Source of the DNA: an uncultured Gammaproteobacteria bacterium | Lineage (GTDB): Bacteria; Patescibacteriota; Microgenomatia; UBA10105; UBA927 | Direction: 5' to 3' | DNA length: 64,000 nt | Assembly: GCA_964448085.1 (NCBI GenBank) | Contig: CAYUUX010000003.1 | Location: forward strand, 5,865 to 69,864 | In this document: positions 6,376-25,004 of the stretch, one piece after another | Position numbering within the stretch: the stretch's first letter is position 1 | Layout of the letters: each line of letters begins with the position of its first letter | Notes under the pieces: model-generated | Databases searched by the model: none | The model's input: the letters and a program-made list of their open reading frames with translations, nothing else | What the model was told of the DNA's origin: nothing | Made by a program: the position numbers and the translations under genes

Positions 6376-7129
6376 AATAGATTCCTGCAAGAAATATACG
6401 GTAGACCCCGAAGGGAACAAAAGAATGATGTCGTATATACTGAAGGAAGAGACGGACCGTAAAAAGCGCGGTGATAAAAGATGTCAAGATTCCCAAGAGA
6501 AGGAAATGTAGTGAAGAGGAATCAAAAGAAATGGGTGATTGAATAAGATCTAATACTGTTGCCGCTAGCATGGTGGGGATTGCAAGAAGAAACGAAAACT
6601 CTACAGATGCGGCTCTGGATAATCCCATAACCATTCCTGCAAACATTGTCGCTGCTGCACGAGATACGCCTGGTATGAGGGAAACAGACTGACCAATCCC
6701 AATACCAACCGCTTGTCGTATCGAAACCGTTTCTAAAGAAGCTCTAGGAAACGTCCTTTTTTTAAACACTGTTTCCATGAGAATAAAGACAGCGCCTCCA
6801 AGAGCGAGTGCGATAACGACTACATAGGGATTGCCTAAAAGATACTGTTTAACAAGTCGGTAGAATAAAAGTCCGGTAATCATGGTGGGAATAAACGCAC
6901 ACAAGAGCGGTACCCAAAGGAACCGTTTGGTTAGGAGAGTTTGAAAATAGATGACGCCCACAGCCATAATTGCCCCAAGCTGGATGATGATCTCAAACGA
7001 TTTTAAGAATTCATTGTTAGGAATGGAAAGCAGAGTTCCAACAAGAATCATATGACCCGTGGAAGATATGGGAAGGAATTCGGTAATACCCTCAACGATA
7101 CCAAGAATGATAGCGTGAACGTTTTGCAT
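6356..7129 (-). CDS. uppP: Undecaprenyl-diphosphatase (UppP/BacA)
   Basis: Hallmark N-terminal motif GIVEGITEFLPISSTGHM and a polytopic membrane profile. Confidence 0.85.
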   Translation of the reverse strand: MQNVHAIILGIVEGITEFLPISSTGHMILVGTLLSIPNNEFLKSFEIIIQLGAIMAVGVIYFQTLLTKRFLWVPLLCAFIPTMITGLLFYRLVKQYLLGNPYVVVIALALGGAVFILMETVFKKRTFPRASLETVSIRQAVGIGIGQSVSLIPGVSRAAATMFAGMVMGLSRAASVEFSFLLAIPTMLAATVLDLIQSPISFDSSSLHFLLLGILTSFITALFTVRLFLQYIRHHSFVPFGVYRIFLAGIYFMFVLR

Positions 7130-17448: not shown

Positions 17449-17575
17449 CTGGATGTGTTCAGGGAAATGAATACATTCTTTTTGTTATTTCTTGATATTC
17501 TCCGAAGAATTTCTTCATGGAGTTAAAAAAGAAGCTGGGAGAAAAATTGACTGTTTTTGATATAGTAATTCTCTA

Positions 17576-17604
17576 TTGACCACCCCTAATTAGTGTTCTA
17601 CACT
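17576..17604 (+). promoter_or_regulatory. Candidate promoter of nrdR-nrdJ (TTGACC, 17-nt spacer, TACACT)
   Basis: TTGACC at 17576-17581, a 17-nt spacer, then TACACT at 17599-17604. Confidence 0.4.
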
Positions 17605-17612
17605 CGATGAGT

Positions 17613-17627
17613 GCACCATATATAGCG
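17613..17627 (+). promoter_or_regulatory. NrdR-box-like palindrome at the predicted TSS
   Basis: gcaCcATATATaGcg resembles the NrdR box consensus acaCwAtATaTwGtgt. It lies immediately downstream of the -10 box and ~35 nt upstream of the nrdR ATG. Confidence 0.4.
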
Positions 17628-17660
17628 TTTTATTTTTCACAGCTCTATTCACACGACACT

Positions 17661-18107
17661 ATGAAATGCCCGTATTGTGACCATAAGGATACCGATGTTT
17701 TGGAGACGCGGGATAGTGAAGACCTCTCCGTGACCAGGAGAAGACGGACATGTCCGAAATGCGATAAACGATTCACTACCTATGAGCGAGTTGAGCATGT
17801 TCCAATCACCGTTATCAAAAAAGACAAACGGCGCGAAACGTTTGACAGAGAAAAACTCAGTCGTGGAATATGGAGAGCAAGTGGAAAAACAACGTTGTCC
17901 GCAGACGATGTCAATAGAATTGTTGACGAGGTTGAGCGCGAGATTATAATCGGTGACAAGAATGAAGTGGAAAGCAAAACGATCGGTGAGCTTGTTGCAA
18001 AACGGCTGAAAAAGCTGGATAAAATTGCCTATATCAGATTTTCTAGCGTCTTTAAACAATTTGTAGACATAGAAGATTTGGCAAAGGAAGTAAAAAAAAT
18101 TAGTTGA
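17661..18107 (+). CDS. nrdR: Transcriptional repressor NrdR (zinc ribbon + ATP-cone)
   Basis: MKCPYC...RRRTCPKCDKRFTTYE zinc ribbon followed by an ATP-cone-sized region. Confidence 0.85.
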   Translation: MKCPYCDHKDTDVLETRDSEDLSVTRRRRTCPKCDKRFTTYERVEHVPITVIKKDKRRETFDREKLSRGIWRASGKTTLSADDVNRIVDEVEREIIIGDKNEVESKTIGELVAKRLKKLDKIAYIRFSSVFKQFVDIEDLAKEVKKIS

Positions 18108-18133
18108 CCTGTCAGCACAAAGGAGAATGTTCT

Positions 18134-20560
18134 ATGGAATTAACCGGCATTCGTAATACTGTATTTTTAGACAGATATGCGTTGAAAGACGAAGCTGGTA
18201 ATCCTATTGAAAAAACTCCTGAAGATATGTGGCGTCGTGTTGCACATGCGGTTGCAACCATGGAAAAACCAAGCGTGAGGGAACAGTGGGAAGAAAGATT
18301 CTATGACATCATGAGGGATTTTATCTTTGTTCCCGGCGGAAGAATCTTATCTGGAGCCGGCACGGGATACAAAGTTACATTTTATAATTGCTTCGTTATT
18401 CCCAGTCCAAAGGATTCCCGAGGAGGTATCCTTACCACATTATCCAACATGGTCGAAATTATGGCACGGGGAGGAGGGGTTGGTATCAATTTATCAACAT
18501 TGCGTCCGAGAGGATCTCGCGTGAAAAAAGTAAACGGGTTTTCTTCAGGACCGATCAATTGGGCAGAACTTTTTTCTGTTGCGACAAAAGATATTATTCA
18601 GCAGGGTGGGACGAGACGCGGTGCCCTCATGCTCATGTTGTGGGACTGGCATCCAGATATTGAGGAGTTCATAACAGTAAAAAAAGATCTGACAAAAATT
18701 AACGGAGCAAATCTTTCCGTTTGTGTATCTGACGCCTTTATGACCGCCGTTAAAAATGATGCGGATTGGGATTTAGTGTTTCCGGACACTCAGGATCCGG
18801 ACTATGACACGAAATGGGATGGGTACATGCCCAATTGGATCGCCTTGGGAAAAAAACCAAAAATCGTTCGGACGATAAAAGCGCGGGCGTTATGGGATCA
18901 GATAGCAACCTCCGCATGGGCAAGCGCGGAACCAGGCGTAGTATTCATGGAACGCTATAACAAACAATTCAACAATTATTATTATGAATTCGTCAATTGC
19001 GTAAACCCATGTGGAGAAGAAGGGCTTCCATACTGGGGGGTATGTAATTTATGTTCCATTAACCTTGCTGCGCTTGTTGATGCACAGGGAAACATGGATT
19101 ATGAACGGTTGGCCCAGGTGGCAAAGATAGGCGTACGGTTTCAGGATAATGTCGTCGATGCCGATGTATATATTTTTGATGAAATCAAAAAAGTACAACT
19201 GCAGGGGGAACGTCGTATTGGTCTTGGAACCATGGGATTGGGTGACGCATTGATTAAAATGCATATCCGGTACGGATCGCCGGAGAGTTTATTGGTGATT
19301 GATAAAATATACAGAACCGTTCGTGATGCCGCTTATGAGTCGTCAATAGACATTGCGAAAGAAAAGGGAGCATTCCCAAAAATCGATAAGAAAAAACACG
19401 TAGAAGGGTATTTTGTGCGACAGCTTCCCGATAGATTGAAAAATAAACTGCGCCGATACGGGATACGCAATTCTTTACTCCTGCAGCAGGCCCCGACGGG
19501 TTCCACATCGCTATTGGCAGGAGTATCCAGTGGTATCGAACCCGTATTCGAATTTGAGTTTATTCGTCGCGATCGTTTGGGAGAACATTTGATCAGACAC
19601 CCACTGTATGATGCATGGGTTGAATCGTTCAAAAATGAATATGGACACGAACCCACAAAGGAGGAACGACCGGACTATTTTGCGTCTGCCAATGACTTAA
19701 CTCCGGAAAATCATGTGGAAGTGCAAGCGGCTATCCAGAAATATGTGGATGCATCCATCAGCAAAACAGTGAACGCTCCCAACGCGCATACGGTTGAGGA
19801 TGTGAAGCGGGTATATACAAAAGCATATGAATTGGGATGTAAGGGTATTGCATATATGCGGGAAGGGAGTAGGCAGGGTGTATTAACAAGAACGGAAGCT
19901 GAAAAAAAGGAAGAACCTGTTCATGAAGAAACAGTTCCCCTTGTTCCAGAAGTAAAACCAAGACCTTCTATTGTTCATGGGTCAACATATCAAGTCGAAA
20001 CGCCGGTTGGGCAAGCATATGTAACGGTGAATACGAATGGAGGAAATCAGCCAATTGAGATGTTTATAAATGTCGGAAAAGCAGGAAGTGACGTTACTGC
20101 CATGGCGGAAGCGGTTGGAAGATTAATATCTCTTATTTTGCGTATCGCATCACCAATTGCACCGATGGAGCGGGCAAGAAAAATTGCAGCAGAACTTATC
20201 GGTATCGGCGGCGCTCGATCTTTAGGTTTTGGAGAAAATAGGGTAAGAAGCCTGCCTGATGCGGTTGCAAAAGTCATAGATAGACATTTTGGTTTTTTTG
20301 CAAAACACCGACTAGATGCATCTGCAACAGAGCCAGACAGGGTTGTTGGAGACCATCAGGGGGAGCAAGGGGAAAAGCAGGAAGAAAATATCGAGGCATT
20401 GCTTGCAAAGATGGGCGCTTCACCCCAACAGATAATGGTGCAGAAACCATCAGAAAACCGCATGGTTACCGTGGACTTGTGTCCCAAGTGCGGGGAGGGC
20501 AGTCTTGTTTTTGAGGAGTCCTGCAAAAAGTGTTACAGCTGCGGATATTCAGAATGTTGA
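18134..20560 (+). CDS. nrdJ: Ribonucleotide reductase, class II (adenosylcobalamin-dependent, NrdJ) with a C-terminal zinc ribbon
   Basis: Active-site NPCGEEGLP and C-terminal CPKCGEG...CKKCYSCG. No adjacent NrdB/NrdG partner. It is immediately followed by a PduO-type adenosyltransferase and preceded by nrdR. Confidence 0.75.
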   Translation: MELTGIRNTVFLDRYALKDEAGNPIEKTPEDMWRRVAHAVATMEKPSVREQWEERFYDIMRDFIFVPGGRILSGAGTGYKVTFYNCFVIPSPKDSRGGILTTLSNMVEIMARGGGVGINLSTLRPRGSRVKKVNGFSSGPINWAELFSVATKDIIQQGGTRRGALMLMLWDWHPDIEEFITVKKDLTKINGANLSVCVSDAFMTAVKNDADWDLVFPDTQDPDYDTKWDGYMPNWIALGKKPKIVRTIKARALWDQIATSAWASAEPGVVFMERYNKQFNNYYYEFVNCVNPCGEEGLPYWGVCNLCSINLAALVDAQGNMDYERLAQVAKIGVRFQDNVVDADVYIFDEIKKVQLQGERRIGLGTMGLGDALIKMHIRYGSPESLLVIDKIYRTVRDAAYESSIDIAKEKGAFPKIDKKKHVEGYFVRQLPDRLKNKLRRYGIRNSLLLQQAPTGSTSLLAGVSSGIEPVFEFEFIRRDRLGEHLIRHPLYDAWVESFKNEYGHEPTKEERPDYFASANDLTPENHVEVQAAIQKYVDASISKTVNAPNAHTVEDVKRVYTKAYELGCKGIAYMREGSRQGVLTRTEAEKKEEPVHEETVPLVPEVKPRPSIVHGSTYQVETPVGQAYVTVNTNGGNQPIEMFINVGKAGSDVTAMAEAVGRLISLILRIASPIAPMERARKIAAELIGIGGARSLGFGENRVRSLPDAVAKVIDRHFGFFAKHRLDASATEPDRVVGDHQGEQGEKQEENIEALLAKMGASPQQIMVQKPSENRMVTVDLCPKCGEGSLVFEESCKKCYSCGYSEC

Positions 20561-20563
20561 TAT

Positions 20564-21103
20564 ATGACTATTTACACCCGAACGGGCGATAGTGGAACAA
20601 CTGCTTTGTTTGGGGGAAAGCGTGTATCAAAAGGAGATTCCAGAGTTGAGTCATATGGATCGATAGATGAGCTGAATAGCGCCCTAGGGTTACTTTTATC
20701 CTTTCTTCCCGATACGATGCGCCAAAGGAAAATTCTGCACAGCATTCAGCAAGACTTGTTTACGTGTGCATCCTGTATAGCGGGAAACAACATCAACATG
20801 GATGGCATTCAGGAACGGATCCGCGACATAGAAGAGACAATCGATGCAATGGACAAAAGCGTACCGGATTTACATAACTTTATTCTTCCCGGCGGATCCC
20901 CCGCCGGCGCATTAGCGCATGTTGTGCGGACAATATGTCGGAAGACGGAACGTATGGTTGTAAAAGAAAACACAAGAGGAAGATACGACGTGGTCGTTGC
21001 ATATCTCAATCGTGTTTCAGACTTGTTATTTGTGCTCGCAAGGTTTATAAATAAGATCGACGGTGCTAAAGAAGAATTGTGGAGGGGCAACGTCAAAATG
21101 TGA
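20564..21103 (+). CDS. pduO: ATP:cob(I)alamin adenosyltransferase, PduO type
   Basis: Signature N-terminus MTIYTRTGDSGTTALFGG and ~180 aa size. Confidence 0.85.
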   Translation: MTIYTRTGDSGTTALFGGKRVSKGDSRVESYGSIDELNSALGLLLSFLPDTMRQRKILHSIQQDLFTCASCIAGNNINMDGIQERIRDIEETIDAMDKSVPDLHNFILPGGSPAGALAHVVRTICRKTERMVVKENTRGRYDVVVAYLNRVSDLLFVLARFINKIDGAKEELWRGNVKM

Positions 21104-21104
21104 A

Positions 21105-21252
21105 TGCGCGAGGAAGACCGTGAAAATCGGTCACTGTGCCGCAACGGTAATTCTGCCTTGGCAGGACAGTCCGGAACTCTCATTCATATATCCCGAGCAG
21201 GAAAATGAAAATTGGTAGCCTTCTCGGGTACAGCGTATCGAGAAGGTTTTTT
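21105..21252 (+). promoter_or_regulatory. 5' leader with alternative antiterminator/terminator hairpins; candidate cobalamin riboswitch
   Basis: Terminator: ccttctcg (21219-21226) pairs with cgagaagg (21239-21246), then a T6 run, ending 15 nt before the RBS/ATG at 21268. An alternative stem cccgag (21192-21197) with ctcggg (21223-21228) overlaps the terminator's 5' arm. Upstream, GTGAAAATCGG ... CCGCAACGGTAA resemble cobalamin-riboswitch core motifs. Confidence 0.4.
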
Positions 21253-21267
21253 AATGGGAGATAGTGT

Positions 21268-21687
21268 ATGAAAATAAAATCGCATTTGAAGACATATTTT
21301 TTAGTTGTCTGCTGTGTTGTTCTTGGGGTTTTATTTGTGAGAAACGGTCTGCAGGGGAAACAAACGCCGCAAACAAGTGTTGAGCAGGAATCGGTTCCTG
21401 CAAGTGTTGTAACCATAAATGATGCAACGCGTATTGTAACGGGGAGGGAACAGGCAAAAACGCCGTTTGAAGCCTTGTCATTTCTGGCTAAAAAAAATAA
21501 TATTCCTGTTGTAACAAAATCATATGATTTTGGCATATTTGTCCAGTCGATAGGAGACAAAGAATCTGGGTCTGAGATGGCATGGATTTATTATGTCAAT
21601 GGAGCGGCCGGAAACGTTGCATCGGACAAATATGAATTGAAAGAAAACGATAGTGTTGAGTGGAAATATGAAAAGTCGATATATTAA
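21268..21687 (+). CDS. Secreted DUF4430-like protein (cobalamin-binding/uptake-associated family)
   Basis: Signal peptide and a ~110-aa beta-rich domain (…VEWKYE). This family typically sits beside B12 transporters and behind B12 riboswitches. The family assignment is from memory. Confidence 0.45.
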   Translation: MKIKSHLKTYFLVVCCVVLGVLFVRNGLQGKQTPQTSVEQESVPASVVTINDATRIVTGREQAKTPFEALSFLAKKNNIPVVTKSYDFGIFVQSIGDKESGSEMAWIYYVNGAAGNVASDKYELKENDSVEWKYEKSIY

Positions 21688-22210
21688 TGCAGAATTTATG
21701 GAAATTCTATTTTTTTCATTTATTGGAATCATTTCTCGCTTGGTGCCCCATCTTCCCAATATGACAACGATCGGTGCGGCTTCGGTATTTATGGGCGCAA
21801 AATTCGGAGTGAAAAAAGGAATGCTTGTGATGCTGCTTACTATGTTGATAACAGACAGTATTAAAGGATTGCATTCCGTTATGTGGGCAACCTATGGAGC
21901 TTTATTTATTGCGGTGTTGATAGGGAAATATGCGATCGGCAACCGTCGGGCCGGATGGATAATGGGGGGTACCCTGCTCTCCTCTCTCATCTTTTTTATC
22001 GTTTCCAATTTTGCCGTTTGGCTATCCCCGCATTTTATGTATCCTTTAACTCCAGATGGTTTGATGCGCTGTTATGTAATGGCTTTGCCGTTTTTTAGAA
22101 ATTCTTTGATCGGCGATGTACTTTATACGGTGATTTTCTTTGGGGTATATGATATCGTTCTCTCAATAAAAAGAAGCTATTCGTTGCAGAGACAAATCGC
22201 TAATCAGTGA
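21653..22210 (+). CDS. Small polytopic membrane protein, possible ECF-type S-component (vitamin uptake)
   Basis: ~5-6 hydrophobic helices in ~170 aa. It overlaps or abuts the DUF4430-like gene. Alternative starts are at 21668 or 21698. Confidence 0.4.
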   Translation: MLSGNMKSRYINAEFMEILFFSFIGIISRLVPHLPNMTTIGAASVFMGAKFGVKKGMLVMLLTMLITDSIKGLHSVMWATYGALFIAVLIGKYAIGNRRAGWIMGGTLLSSLIFFIVSNFAVWLSPHFMYPLTPDGLMRCYVMALPFFRNSLIGDVLYTVIFFGVYDIVLSIKRSYSLQRQIANQ

Positions 22211-22249: not shown

Positions 22250-22654
22250 ATGATTAGAAGTATGAATAACCTGCCTGATACCAGGAATAGTTCTAATACT
22301 ATAGCAACTCCGGCAAATCCAGTGGGGAGAGTAAATAAAGAATTAGAACCTTCAGCAATCGGGAACAGTGAGCCTGCAGTTAGAGATGCTGCAAAGGAAA
22401 TCGATCTTCCAAAAGAACTTACTTCATTTGGTGTCCATACGACATCAACAGTAGTACCGATACCCCCGCCGGTACAACAAATGGGAGTGATGCCTACCGG
22501 TCAAAATATTCCCAACGCCGGAATCTCCATCTCATTACCGTTGTCTGATGATCAAATAGCGCAAGGAATGCGAACGAGCGTGCTGGATTCGTTCCGTTGG
22601 TTAGCGGAGTGGTGTAAGCGGCAATTAAAACGCATCGGTATGGTAAAAGCATAA
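22250..22654 (+). CDS. Hypothetical protein (134 aa) co-transcribed with the membrane ATPase
   Basis: Stop is 1 nt before the next ATG. Pro/Ser-rich with a basic amphipathic C-terminus. No recognisable domain. Confidence 0.3.
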   Translation: MIRSMNNLPDTRNSSNTIATPANPVGRVNKELEPSAIGNSEPAVRDAAKEIDLPKELTSFGVHTTSTVVPIPPPVQQMGVMPTGQNIPNAGISISLPLSDDQIAQGMRTSVLDSFRWLAEWCKRQLKRIGMVKA

Positions 22655-22655
22655 T

Positions 22656-25004
22656 ATGCCAATAGAGACAACTGCCATTATCAGCAAACTTGAAACCTTC
22701 GGTATAAGCCTGTTTATGCTCATTCTGTTGGGTGCATTATGTCTTGGTGTTATCTATGCAATTTTTCTCCTATGGAAGTATCGGGGTCGTGAGGCACGAT
22801 CGCTTTCATATGTGTTACTGCAAATAGCCGTGCCCAGAGAAAATGAGATCAAAATCGATGCTGCGGAACAAATGTTTTCCAGTATTTACGGAATTTACAA
22901 TAATAAATGGTGGGCCTTTATCCAACCACAAGAACACATCTCTTTTGAGATTGTTGCCCGGAGGGAAGATATTCGGTTTTATGTGTCCGTTCCAAAGAAC
23001 ATCATGGATCTAGTGGAAAAACAGATCCATGGAGCATATCCCGGCGCAGATATCAAAGAAGTTGAAGAGCAGTCGATATTTTCGGAGAAAGGAAAGGTTG
23101 CATTTGCCGCTCTGCGTCTTCGGTATGGGAATCATTATCCGTTACGCACCTATCGGGATCTTCCAACTGACGCGCTGTCATCGATTACATCGGTTCTTGC
23201 CAAAATGCAGGAAGGTGAAGGAGCTGTCATCCAGGTATTAATACAACCAACAGGGGACAGATGGAAACGAACTGGCCGATCATATATAGCAAAGGTAAAA
23301 AAAGATGAGGCTAATCCAGAGAAGGCAAATTTTAAAGTGAATGCAAAATCGCTTGAAGCGATTGAACAAAAACTCCAGAAGCCCGGTTTTAATACGGTGA
23401 TCCGCTTGGTAGTGACTTCAGAAACAAAAGAACAGGCAAAAATTCACTTAAAAAATATCATAGCTTCATTTGGGCAATTTTCCTCAGATAATAATTCTTT
23501 CTGGGAAGTAAAATTTCCCATAAAACATTTATTCCTAACCGATTTTATCTATCGGTACTTTCCAATTTTCAATGTGCCCCTTCTTCGACAATTCAGCGTT
23601 TTGAATACCGATGAGTTGGCAAGCGTCTATCATTTGCCAAATAAGACCATTGAAACACCACATATTTTTTGGCTTAACGCGAAACGTGCACCGGCACCGC
23701 TGTTAATTCCGCAGTCAGGTCTTTATTTAGGTATGTCCAAATATCGAGGTGTGGAACGTCCAATATATGTAGGGGACGATGACAGAAGACGGCATATGTA
23801 TGTGATCGGTAAAACGGGAACCGGTAAATCACAACTTTTGGAAGAATTAGTGATGCAGGATATCAATTCGGGGAAAGGCGTTGCGGTGATTGATCCACAT
23901 GGAGATCTCATTTCAGGTATCTTAGCGAGAATGCCGGTTTCTCGTGCTGAAGATGTGATTTATTTCGATCCTTCGGACACGGAACGACCCATGGGATTGA
24001 ATATGCTGGAAGCAAAAACAGAAGAACAAAAACATTTCGTTGTCACTTCAATTGTCGGCCTTATGTACAAATTATACGATCCGATGAAAACCGGTATAAT
24101 CGGTCCGCGGTTTGAACATGCGATACGAAATGCCATGTTGACGGTTATGAGTGAACCCGGGAATACGTTCGTTGAGGTTGTCAGAGCATTGACGGATCAG
24201 TCGTTTGTGCAGGAGCTTCTGCCAAAAGTATCGGATCCTTTAATACGAAGGTACTGGACTGATCAGATAGCGCAAACCGCAGATTTTCATAAATCGGAAG
24301 TGCTTGATTATATTGTTTCAAAATTTGGGCGGTTTGTTACGAATAAGCTCATGCGCAACATTATAGGACAGTCATCTTCTTCGTTTGATTTTAGAAAGGT
24401 AATGGATGAGGGAAAAATATTACTGGTAAATCTTGCGAAAGGAAAATTGGGAGAAGAAAACAGTAATTTCCTCGGGCTTATTCTCGTACCGCGTATTTTG
24501 GTTGCGGCAATGAGCAGACAAGAAATTCCTGAAGCCGATAGACGAGATTTTTATCTCTATGTGGATGAATTTCAAAATTTTGCAACGCCAGATTTTGCGC
24601 AGATACTATCAGAGGCCAGAAAATATCGGTTGAATTTGATCGTTGCCAACCAATTTATTGGGCAGATGGAGGAGGAGGTTAAGAATGCTGTGTTTGGGAA
24701 CGTTGGAACCCTTGTCGCATTTCGTGTCGGAGTGACTGATGCCAATTATCTTCAGCACGAATTTCAGCCGACGTTCTCTGAATCCGATCTTATCAATATT
24801 GATAAATATAATGCCTATATTAAAACAATCGTTCATAACGAACCCGCGAAACCCTTTTCTATTGATTTGACGAAAAATATGAGACAAATAGAATCGGCGA
24901 GGAATCCGCAGATTGCAAATGCAATTATCCAGCTTTCCCGTTTAAAATATGGGCGTTCGAAGGAATTGGTTGAAGCAGAAGTGTCGGAACGCGCACGATT
25001 ATAA
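22656..25004 (+). CDS. Membrane-anchored HerA/FtsK/TraD-VirD4-superfamily P-loop ATPase (T4SS coupling-protein-like)
   Basis: N-terminal TM helix ISLFMLILLGALCLGVIYAIFLLW. Walker A GKTGTGKS. Walker B YLYVDEFQNF. ~780 aa. Confidence 0.5.
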   Translation: MPIETTAIISKLETFGISLFMLILLGALCLGVIYAIFLLWKYRGREARSLSYVLLQIAVPRENEIKIDAAEQMFSSIYGIYNNKWWAFIQPQEHISFEIVARREDIRFYVSVPKNIMDLVEKQIHGAYPGADIKEVEEQSIFSEKGKVAFAALRLRYGNHYPLRTYRDLPTDALSSITSVLAKMQEGEGAVIQVLIQPTGDRWKRTGRSYIAKVKKDEANPEKANFKVNAKSLEAIEQKLQKPGFNTVIRLVVTSETKEQAKIHLKNIIASFGQFSSDNNSFWEVKFPIKHLFLTDFIYRYFPIFNVPLLRQFSVLNTDELASVYHLPNKTIETPHIFWLNAKRAPAPLLIPQSGLYLGMSKYRGVERPIYVGDDDRRRHMYVIGKTGTGKSQLLEELVMQDINSGKGVAVIDPHGDLISGILARMPVSRAEDVIYFDPSDTERPMGLNMLEAKTEEQKHFVVTSIVGLMYKLYDPMKTGIIGPRFEHAIRNAMLTVMSEPGNTFVEVVRALTDQSFVQELLPKVSDPLIRRYWTDQIAQTADFHKSEVLDYIVSKFGRFVTNKLMRNIIGQSSSSFDFRKVMDEGKILLVNLAKGKLGEENSNFLGLILVPRILVAAMSRQEIPEADRRDFYLYVDEFQNFATPDFAQILSEARKYRLNLIVANQFIGQMEEEVKNAVFGNVGTLVAFRVGVTDANYLQHEFQPTFSESDLINIDKYNAYIKTIVHNEPAKPFSIDLTKNMRQIESARNPQIANAIIQLSRLKYGRSKELVEAEVSERARL

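Follow-up and report, generated by a model that had tools for sequence, protein, structure and literature searches.

Within a 64-kb stretch of contig CAYUUX010000003.1 (hereafter the window), five genes in a row on the + strand, at 17.4-22.3 kb, encode the ribonucleotide reductase (RNR) repressor NrdR, the RNR NrdJ, the adenosyltransferase PduO, a DUF4430 protein and a DUF6580 membrane protein, with an RNA leader between pduO and the DUF4430 gene. The presence of the five open reading frames (ORFs) and of the leader was confirmed, with family assignments well above chance, from the ORF list with its translations, Pfam and TIGRFAM profile scans and Rfam scans. We consider it quite likely that the array is transcribed as a single unit under two tiers of regulation and serves to obtain, activate and use vitamin B12. 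The initial annotation, made from the sequence alone, had likewise read the locus as one in which external cobalamin is taken up, adenosylated and used for deoxyribonucleotide synthesis, and this core reading held on every point testable here. The membrane proteins for B12 uptake are still unidentified in most prokaryotes (PMC6072759). The main value of the locus and its relatives lies in a well-supported function prediction for the large DUF6580 family, which becomes a specific, testable B12-transporter candidate, and in a clearly defined, partly sub-threshold riboswitch subclass. The features concerned are as follows.

17451-17485, + strand: terminator-like hairpin with T-run (consensus scan), ending the upstream DUF5667 gene and marking the putative 5′ boundary of the transcription unit
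17576-17604, + strand: sigma-70-like promoter, TTGACC, 17-nt spacer, TACACT (consensus scan, 9/12 matches)
17581-17628, + strand: candidate NrdR operator, box 2 GCACCATATATAGCGT at 17613-17628 and box 1 half-site AATTAGTGT at 17588-17596
17658-18107, + strand: nrdR, repressor of RNR genes, zinc ribbon and ATP-cone (profile scores)
18134-20560, + strand: nrdJ, class II (adenosylcobalamin-dependent) RNR with TSCPD domain and Cys-rich C-terminal tail (profile scores, closest solved relative)
20564-21103, + strand: pduO, PduO-type ATP:cob(I)alamin adenosyltransferase (profile scores, motif alignment)
21100-21187, + strand: cobalamin riboswitch aptamer (RF01482 match below cut-off, orthologous leaders, covariation)
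P1, 21100-21106 with 21181-21187; P3, 21116-21120 with 21128-21132; P5, 21135-21137 with 21141-21143
P6, 21145-21147 with 21171-21173; P6 extension hairpin, 21153-21164
21192-21202, + strand: switching sequence CCCGAGCAGGA, kept in all seven leaders recovered by protein homology and able to pair with the terminator 5′ arm
21217-21252, + strand: intrinsic terminator, CCTTCTCG (21219-21226) pairing with CGAGAAGG (21239-21246), then T6 (21247-21252)
21268-21687, + strand: DUF4430 protein with N-terminal membrane anchor (PF14478 match), predicted extracytoplasmic corrinoid binder
21698-22210, + strand: DUF6580 membrane protein, 170 aa (PF20221), with a fold like that of energy-coupling factor (ECF) S-components, predicted corrinoid transporter

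In the mechanism that we propose, the promoter at 17576-17604, with its NrdR-box-like sites, would drive nrdR-nrdJ-pduO; NrdJ would make deoxyribonucleotides with adenosylcobalamin, and PduO would produce that cofactor from imported cobalamin. Polymerase would pass from pduO directly into the cobalamin riboswitch. With B12 plentiful, the aptamer would hold CCCGAGCAGGA, the terminator would form and the nrdR-nrdJ-pduO transcript would end after pduO, while with B12 scarce the same sequence would pair with the 5′ arm of the terminator and allow read-through into the DUF4430 and DUF6580 genes. The DUF4430 protein, tethered on the outer face of the membrane, would then capture corrinoid, and the six-helix, S-component-like DUF6580 protein would move it across the membrane, either alone, as the solitary transporter BtuM does, or with an ECF module encoded elsewhere.

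The class II assignment of the RNR made in the initial annotation was borne out by profile comparison, the NrdJ-specific model TIGR02504 (NrdJ_Z; 563.6 bits, cut-off 399.95) clearly outscoring the class I model TIGR02506 (NrdA/NrdE; 348.5 bits, cut-off 341.05). The closest solved relative is the B12-dependent RNR of Thermotoga maritima (1xje, 273 bits, versus 187 bits for the class Ia human R1), and no NrdB family was found among the gene products of the window. The reading frame starts at ATG 18134, preceded by AAGGAG, with TTG 18104 as an alternative. NrdR matched TIGR00244 at 175.9 bits (cut-off 124.65), PF22811 at 65.5 and PF03477 at 65.1, and its start is most likely ATG 17658, because NrdR models begin at MKCPYC; an alternative start at 17607 would bury a conserved operator-like box. 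PduO matched PF01923 at 179.2 bits (cut-off 24; model positions 1-170 of 171) and TIGR00636 at 171.5 bits (cut-off 108.45), and carries TRTGDSGTT...RVESYGSIDELNS, FILPGGSP...HVVRTICRKTER and YLNRVSDLLFVLAR, identical motifs aligning in the solved PduO-type enzymes 36zl and 2zhy. This alignment places both the N-terminal ATP-binding motif, on which the initial annotation had made the adenosyltransferase reading depend, and the conserved Arg/Glu helix (RTxCRxxER) in the window protein, where these motif residues presumably play the functional roles that we assign to them.

The window forms part of a 90-kb JGI metagenome contig. Protein kin of the window are closest to Gottesmanbacteria/Microgenomates, within the candidate phyla radiation (CPR)/Patescibacteria, which fits the reduced, host-dependent genome surmised in the initial annotation. 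We collected 80 species-level loci encoding DUF6580 relatives for comparison (L-numbered). Nine genome loci (L005-L008, L010-L014), with records labelled Gottesmanbacteria, Patescibacteria or Gammaproteobacteria, keep the order nrdR-nrdJ-pduO-DUF4430-DUF6580, as do dozens of metagenome loci. As the initial annotation had noted for corrin biosynthesis, no corrin-biosynthesis gene turned up, nor any other B12-dependent enzyme, btuFCD or ECF-module gene, in the gene lists and Pfam scans, which took in almost the whole window. The supply of DNA precursors in these CPR bacteria appears dependent on scavenged B12, a concrete metabolic dependency in organisms that, to our knowledge, cannot yet be cultured alone. 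A literature search on CPR together with nrdJ found nothing.

The DUF6580 protein matched PF20221 at 138.8 bits (cut-off 27), its sole Pfam match at E up to 0.01, and is taken to start at ATG 21698 rather than GTG 21653 because 22 of 22 aligned homologues start there. The family comprises 5,418 clusters at 50% identity (E up to 1e-3); no publications on it were found in the literature corpus searched, and a plain sequence search gave no solved relative. Its AlphaFold model (pLDDT 90.8) predicts six helices and a fold resembling ECF S-components, the top Foldseek matches being RibU, PanT, ThiT, FolT and 4huq_S (TM 0.55-0.74, E ≥ 0.27). The only PDB sequence touched by the family profile is 6fnp_A, chain A of the ECF-CbrT B12 transporter (E = 6.2). 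When 58 diverse DUF6580 proteins were compared with CbrT-family fragments by hhalign, the alignment reached 86-88% probability (E ~3e-6, 75-91 columns), with reversed and block-shuffled controls at no more than 2.7%, and the motifs R..(x)PN.xPV and M.IS(D/N)..LGF were common to both groups. We therefore regard DUF6580 as probably a distant CbrT relative by sequence, the relationship being one of remote homology and not of membership, since CbrT relatives fall in other Pfam families (PF12822 and PF07155), neither of which the window protein matched.

A second line of evidence comes from the company that DUF6580 keeps. Among 54 DUF6580 loci scanned at Rfam thresholds, 21 carry a cobalamin riboswitch 5′ of the gene on the same strand (13/28 CPR and 8/26 non-CPR loci), with positive loci in five phyla. 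DUF6580 is common in Bacteroidota, Planctomycetota and Acidobacteriota beside BtuB-like receptors, and in one Ignavibacteriaceae and one Acidobacteriota locus (L017, L083) an operon runs from the riboswitch through a TonB-dependent (BtuB-like) receptor to DUF6580. This order matches the context of the proteobacterial B12 transporter BtuM, a solitary S-component-like protein that was predicted from its place in B12 regulons and is encoded beside btuB where the organism lacks an ECF module (PMC6072759). DUF6580 resembles BtuM in its small size and predicted S-component-like fold, but no sequence similarity was detected (6FFV unmatched at E up to 10), and in contrast to BtuM with its cobalt-ligating Cys80 none of the invariant residues among the 58 sequences (R14, P17, H18, N21, D53, F99, Y115, G121 and P131) is a cysteine. 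Candidate contacts to the ligand are His18 and Asp53, both invariant. On these grounds we predict that DUF6580 transports corrinoids; the S-component-like character of the membrane protein agrees with the initial annotation's reading of the locus. In two Planctomycetes loci (L069:2382-6510 and L026:1481-4295), genes for a DUF1559/prepilin-like protein (SBP_bac_10 with an N-terminal methylation motif) and for PEP-CTERM proteins lie between the riboswitch and DUF6580, which suggests an outer capture apparatus other than BtuB.

The DUF4430 protein matched PF14478 at 51.5 bits (cut-off 23.8; model positions 3-72 of 72), and no solved relative was found by sequence search. DUF4430 sits in the C-terminus of TCN proteins, B12 binders of the transcobalamin family (PMC4350170), and we predict that the window protein is a corrinoid binder. 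In 34 of 34 orthologues located 3′ of this riboswitch, roughly 20 hydrophobic residues come after a basic N-terminus and a lipobox is lacking, suggesting that the protein is tethered outside the membrane; the family named in the initial annotation thus stands, whereas its description as a secreted protein gives way to a membrane-anchored one.

Taken together with its neighbours, the window module appears to be a CPR version of a known design, because comparable arrangements occur in lactobacilli. Lactobacillus delbrueckii has the cluster nrdJ-cbrS-cbrT-pduO with ECF-CbrT (PMC5997447), which likewise links a class II RNR, PduO and an S-component-type B12 transporter, there in a B12 auxotroph. 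Given this matching logic, and the adjacency of nrdJ and pduO in 51/55 related loci, the initial annotation's view that the linkage is uncommon had to be given up. In L. rhamnosus a DUF4430 gene adjoins the class II reductase gene, and in L. sakei (lsa1836-1840; bioRxiv 10.1101/864751) a transcobalamin-like extracellular binder is paired with a CbrT-like S-component. The window departs from this design in its transporter family (DUF6580, versus PF12822/PF07155 for CbrT), in the apparent lack of an ECF module nearby, in the inclusion of nrdR and in gene order, and in a riboswitch placed inside the operon after pduO; unlike L. sakei, where a complete ECF module accompanies alpha- and beta-like binders, it has a single DUF4430 protein.

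How transport would be energised bears on the most serious alternative, namely that DUF6580 is not solitary but an ordinary S-component dependent on a shared EcfAA'T module encoded at another genomic site ('group II'). CbrT, its closest detectable relative, works with an ECF module (PMC5997447), and the predicted fold matches module-dependent S-components. However, a motif scan found no ORF with ATP-binding cassette (ABC) ATPase motifs (Walker A plus LSGGQ) in the window, only 1/80 DUF6580 loci has such an ORF within ~6 kb, and the position beside BtuB-like receptors in Bacteroidota, Planctomycetota and Acidobacteriota is the setting of the solitary BtuM (PMC6072759). We see the shared-module alternative as a real possibility, if one that falls short of even chances; it touches energisation only and is compatible with the B12-acquisition unit proposed here. 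An ABC-type solute-binding protein gene does lie at ~31.1-32.6 kb, despite the lack of an ORF with ABC-ATPase motifs in the window.

The converse proposal is correspondingly tentative. DUF6580 (~5,400 clusters at 50% identity) could be a third, so far unrecognised family of S-component-like B12 transporters, independent of ECF modules and serving B12 uptake in CPR and in many Bacteroidota, Ignavibacteriota, Planctomycetota and Acidobacteriota; in CPR it would act with the membrane-tethered, transcobalamin-like DUF4430 protein, and the same CPR riboswitch would control further B12-starvation proteins (famX, famY, famZ and famW, see below).

It is unlikely, in our judgement, that the DUF4430/DUF6580 pair imports not cobalamin itself but another tetrapyrrole (for instance heme) or just an incomplete corrinoid (for instance cobinamide). 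For the ECF transporter and transcobalamin alpha/beta-like proteins of L. sakei, heme was suggested as the substrate 'instead or additionally to' cobalamin (bioRxiv 10.1101/864751), and ECF-CbrT also transports cobinamide (PMC5997447). In the window, however, the controlling RNA belongs to the cobalamin clan and the neighbours are nrdJ and pduO; the Gram-negative DUF6580 relatives follow a riboswitch-controlled TonB-dependent receptor; and CobS, CobT and CobU, which would convert cobinamide to cobalamin, are absent from the window.

Several further observations, beside the L. sakei heme proposal, weigh against a B12-acquisition unit with DUF6580 as its transporter. By Foldseek E-value, none of the S-component matches reaches significance. 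The CbrT comparison spans the N-terminal half only and draws on fragmentary, frameshifted CbrT sequences, since a search with the 81-residue aligned stretch yielded only short, frameshifted fragments. About 60% of the scanned DUF6580 loci have no above-threshold riboswitch in reach, and a link to B12 may thus not hold across the whole family. Neither an ECF module nor an ABC ATPase that would account for transport energy was found near DUF6580 in the window, nor was a cob(II)alamin reductase to serve PduO identified. Inspection of loop L5 revealed no convincing kissing-loop complement of CCCGAGCAGGA, leaving the ligand-bound contact unassignable from sequence. Finally, the Rfam scan of the whole window at curated thresholds returned no cobalamin riboswitch, the aptamer falling below the gathering score of all three clan models; indeed no Rfam family, not even a tRNA, reached its curated threshold anywhere in the 64 kb.

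The leader (21100-21252 as a whole, a corrected span) had been described simply as structured. In a permissive Rfam scan (501 bases), the adenosylcobalamin (AdoCbl) model RF01482 matched 21096-21213 at 34.5 bits (E = 1.1e-4, cut-off 50), with lower scores against RF00174 and RF01689. Because such a sub-threshold match is weak alone, the loci of DUF6580 relatives were fetched for comparison. Above-threshold matches occupy the same pduO-DUF4430 gap in L007 (44.5) and L013 (43.6; cut-off 36.5) and in L010 (34.6; cut-off 31.5), and L005 also carries an above-threshold copy (40.0 bits, cut-off 31.5); three loci of Saccharibacteria and Berkelbacteria (L046, L015, L018) also have a cobalamin-clan riboswitch above cut-off 5′ of their DUF4430/DUF6580 pair. 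The seven leaders recovered via protein homology alone (the window, L005, L007, L010, L011, L013 and L014) share a nearly identical core, from which we built a pattern that retrieved 82 metagenome stretches; 63 distinct sequences were aligned.

Across these 63 sequences, 89.2% of the cells in P1, P3, P5 and P6 were paired, versus 73.6% in shuffled and 34-51% in slid alignments, and 0/500 shuffles reached the observed pairing. Cells changed on both sides numbered 219, against 78 expected. The collection pattern left P1 and P3 free and constrained P5, most of P6 and the 3′ segment, which therefore carry no independent covariation information. P3 was 98.7% paired, with compensatory changes in four of its five pairs, and the P6 pair in alignment columns 54/116 was GC 49 times, UA nine times, CG four times and AU once, with zero mismatches. 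The window aptamer retains all the invariant core bases of the family, and its P1 (TGAATG/CATTCA) and P3 (GACCG/CGGTC) are fully paired with window-specific compensatory changes. A pduO lies no more than 250 nt upstream of 62/83 riboswitch copies. These results support the identification of the leader as a cobalamin riboswitch, the ligand being predicted from its clan and neighbours.

In its core helices and its conserved GCC...AGYCNGGAAC core, the aptamer resembles the riboswitches of clan CL00101, notably the short AdoCbl-II type RF01689, whose cut-off is passed by relatives that lack the P6 hairpin. The window copy differs from these riboswitches in falling below the threshold of all three clan models and in having a P6 extension hairpin and a terminator/antiterminator platform. 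In the translational versions of this riboswitch, the regulatory segment CGAGCAGGAG carries the ribosome-binding site, an arrangement that we take to resemble that of the env8 class II riboswitch. As the subclass is partly missed at Rfam thresholds, it matters for riboswitch annotation in reduced genomes.

The expression platform appears in two forms, so that a single aptamer serves to control either translation or transcription. Every riboswitch copy ends in CCCGAGCAGGA. In about half of the copies, the AGGAG within it lies 5-8 nt ahead of the downstream start codon, which looks like the usual arrangement of translational control. In 34/75 related leaders, the window included, the spacer after the switching sequence instead holds a hairpin and U-run, and most of these 34 carry, in the 5′ arm of the hairpin, a motif of CUCGG type that is complementary to CCCGAG(C)AGG; in the window and many other leaders it reads CCUYCUCGG. 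The window terminator was calculated at -13 to -15.9 kcal/mol (RNAfold), and the antiterminator duplex of 21192-21201 with 21219-21228 at -15.6 kcal/mol. As judged from this design, the window platform is a standard terminator/antiterminator OFF switch, from which we infer repression by B12. Unlike riboswitches in 5′ untranslated regions, the window copy begins at the stop codon of the gene before it (P1 starts at 21100, overlapping the pduO stop at 21101-21103), and no promoter-like site was found between pduO and DUF4430 by consensus scan; it would therefore act inside the operon.

Two other readings of the leader were considered. That it merely terminates nrdR-nrdJ-pduO, its aptamer a decayed remnant and DUF4430/DUF6580 expressed independently of B12, would accord with the score below the Rfam cut-off and with the close relatives L005 and L008, which have no leader between pduO and DUF4430. 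We think this very improbable, since all invariant core nucleotides are kept, P1 and P3 show compensation peculiar to the window, the terminator arm and the switching sequence are complementary, a feature also of most of the 34 terminator-bearing relatives, and no alternative promoter for DUF4430 was found. Least credible of all, and rejected, is a riboswitch-coupled attenuation mechanism in which a 19-codon leader ORF (21205-21264) would be translated across the terminator hairpin: AAAATG after the switching sequence does open such an ORF, ending 4 nt before the DUF4430 start codon, but it is absent from the directly read relatives with the same terminator (L095, L130, L158, L132, L167), where the antiterminator pairing recurs and explains the conservation without it.

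At the other end of the proposed B12 unit, conservation points to a first regulatory tier. The promoter-like site begins with its -35 box at 17576; this box is kept in the orthologous loci L005, L006, L008, L010, L011 and L014, as are the position of the -10 box and the spacer motif TTAGTGT. Box 2 of the candidate NrdR operator fits the NrdR-box consensus at 13/16 positions; five matches at least this good occur in the 64 kb, so the match is weak alone and no better than chance, and a single NrdR-box scan was rejected as stand-alone evidence. The half-site of box 1 lies ~32 bp 5′ of box 2 and overlaps the promoter, and both CACCATAKRTAGCGTTT and TTAGTGT (box 2 and half-box) are kept 5′ of nrdR in at least eight orthologous loci. 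Autoregulation of the operon by NrdR is likely on this conservation.

Related CPR loci keep the array nrdR-nrdJ-pduO-[riboswitch]-X-orf134 while slot X varies, being either DUF4430 plus DUF6580 or one of several families of large hydrophilic proteins (470-830 aa) found outside the window. These are famX (17 copies, 517-684 aa), famY (nine), famZ (three) and famW (two, with a Cys-rich tail), for none of which a Pfam, PDB or Foldseek match was found. Examples of the large slot-X proteins are listed here.

L087:4037-6052, - strand
L005:6624-8231, + strand
L140:1421-3670, + strand
L098:4647-6605, - strand
L097:6937-8358, + strand

In famX, an N-terminal domain (residues ~55-285) is predicted with confidence and contains many polar positions that are invariant; the conserved C-terminus comprises a hydrophobic helix, a basic patch and GIIFxFxS. 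From their position, the large slot-X proteins would be B12-repressed via the same CPR cobalamin riboswitch. In L005, the closest genome relative, the riboswitch (6504-6614) follows DUF6580 and precedes a famX gene, with none between pduO and DUF4430, while L095 and L106 have two copies each, such loci carrying one before DUF4430 and a second before famX; the riboswitch thus seems to move or duplicate within the array.

Immediately 3′ of DUF6580 in the window (22250-25004, + strand) are orf134 and a VirD4/TraG-like ATPase (782 aa; DUF8128, TraG-D_C). The product of orf134 is 134 aa and belongs to no family, and in most related loci the gene lies just 3′ of the riboswitch-controlled slot. The gap after DUF6580 is 39 nt long and holds no terminator-like site, and the two genes may be co-transcribed and B12-controlled.

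Some of the comparison loci also bear on the taxonomy of the records themselves. Five loci (L006, L008, L009, L011 and L029) are recorded publicly as 'uncultured Gammaproteobacteria', yet they carry the CPR-type nrdR-nrdJ-pduO-DUF4430-DUF6580 array, and the NrdJ of several such loci is 75-85% identical to that of Gottesmanbacteria. They are probably mislabelled bins.

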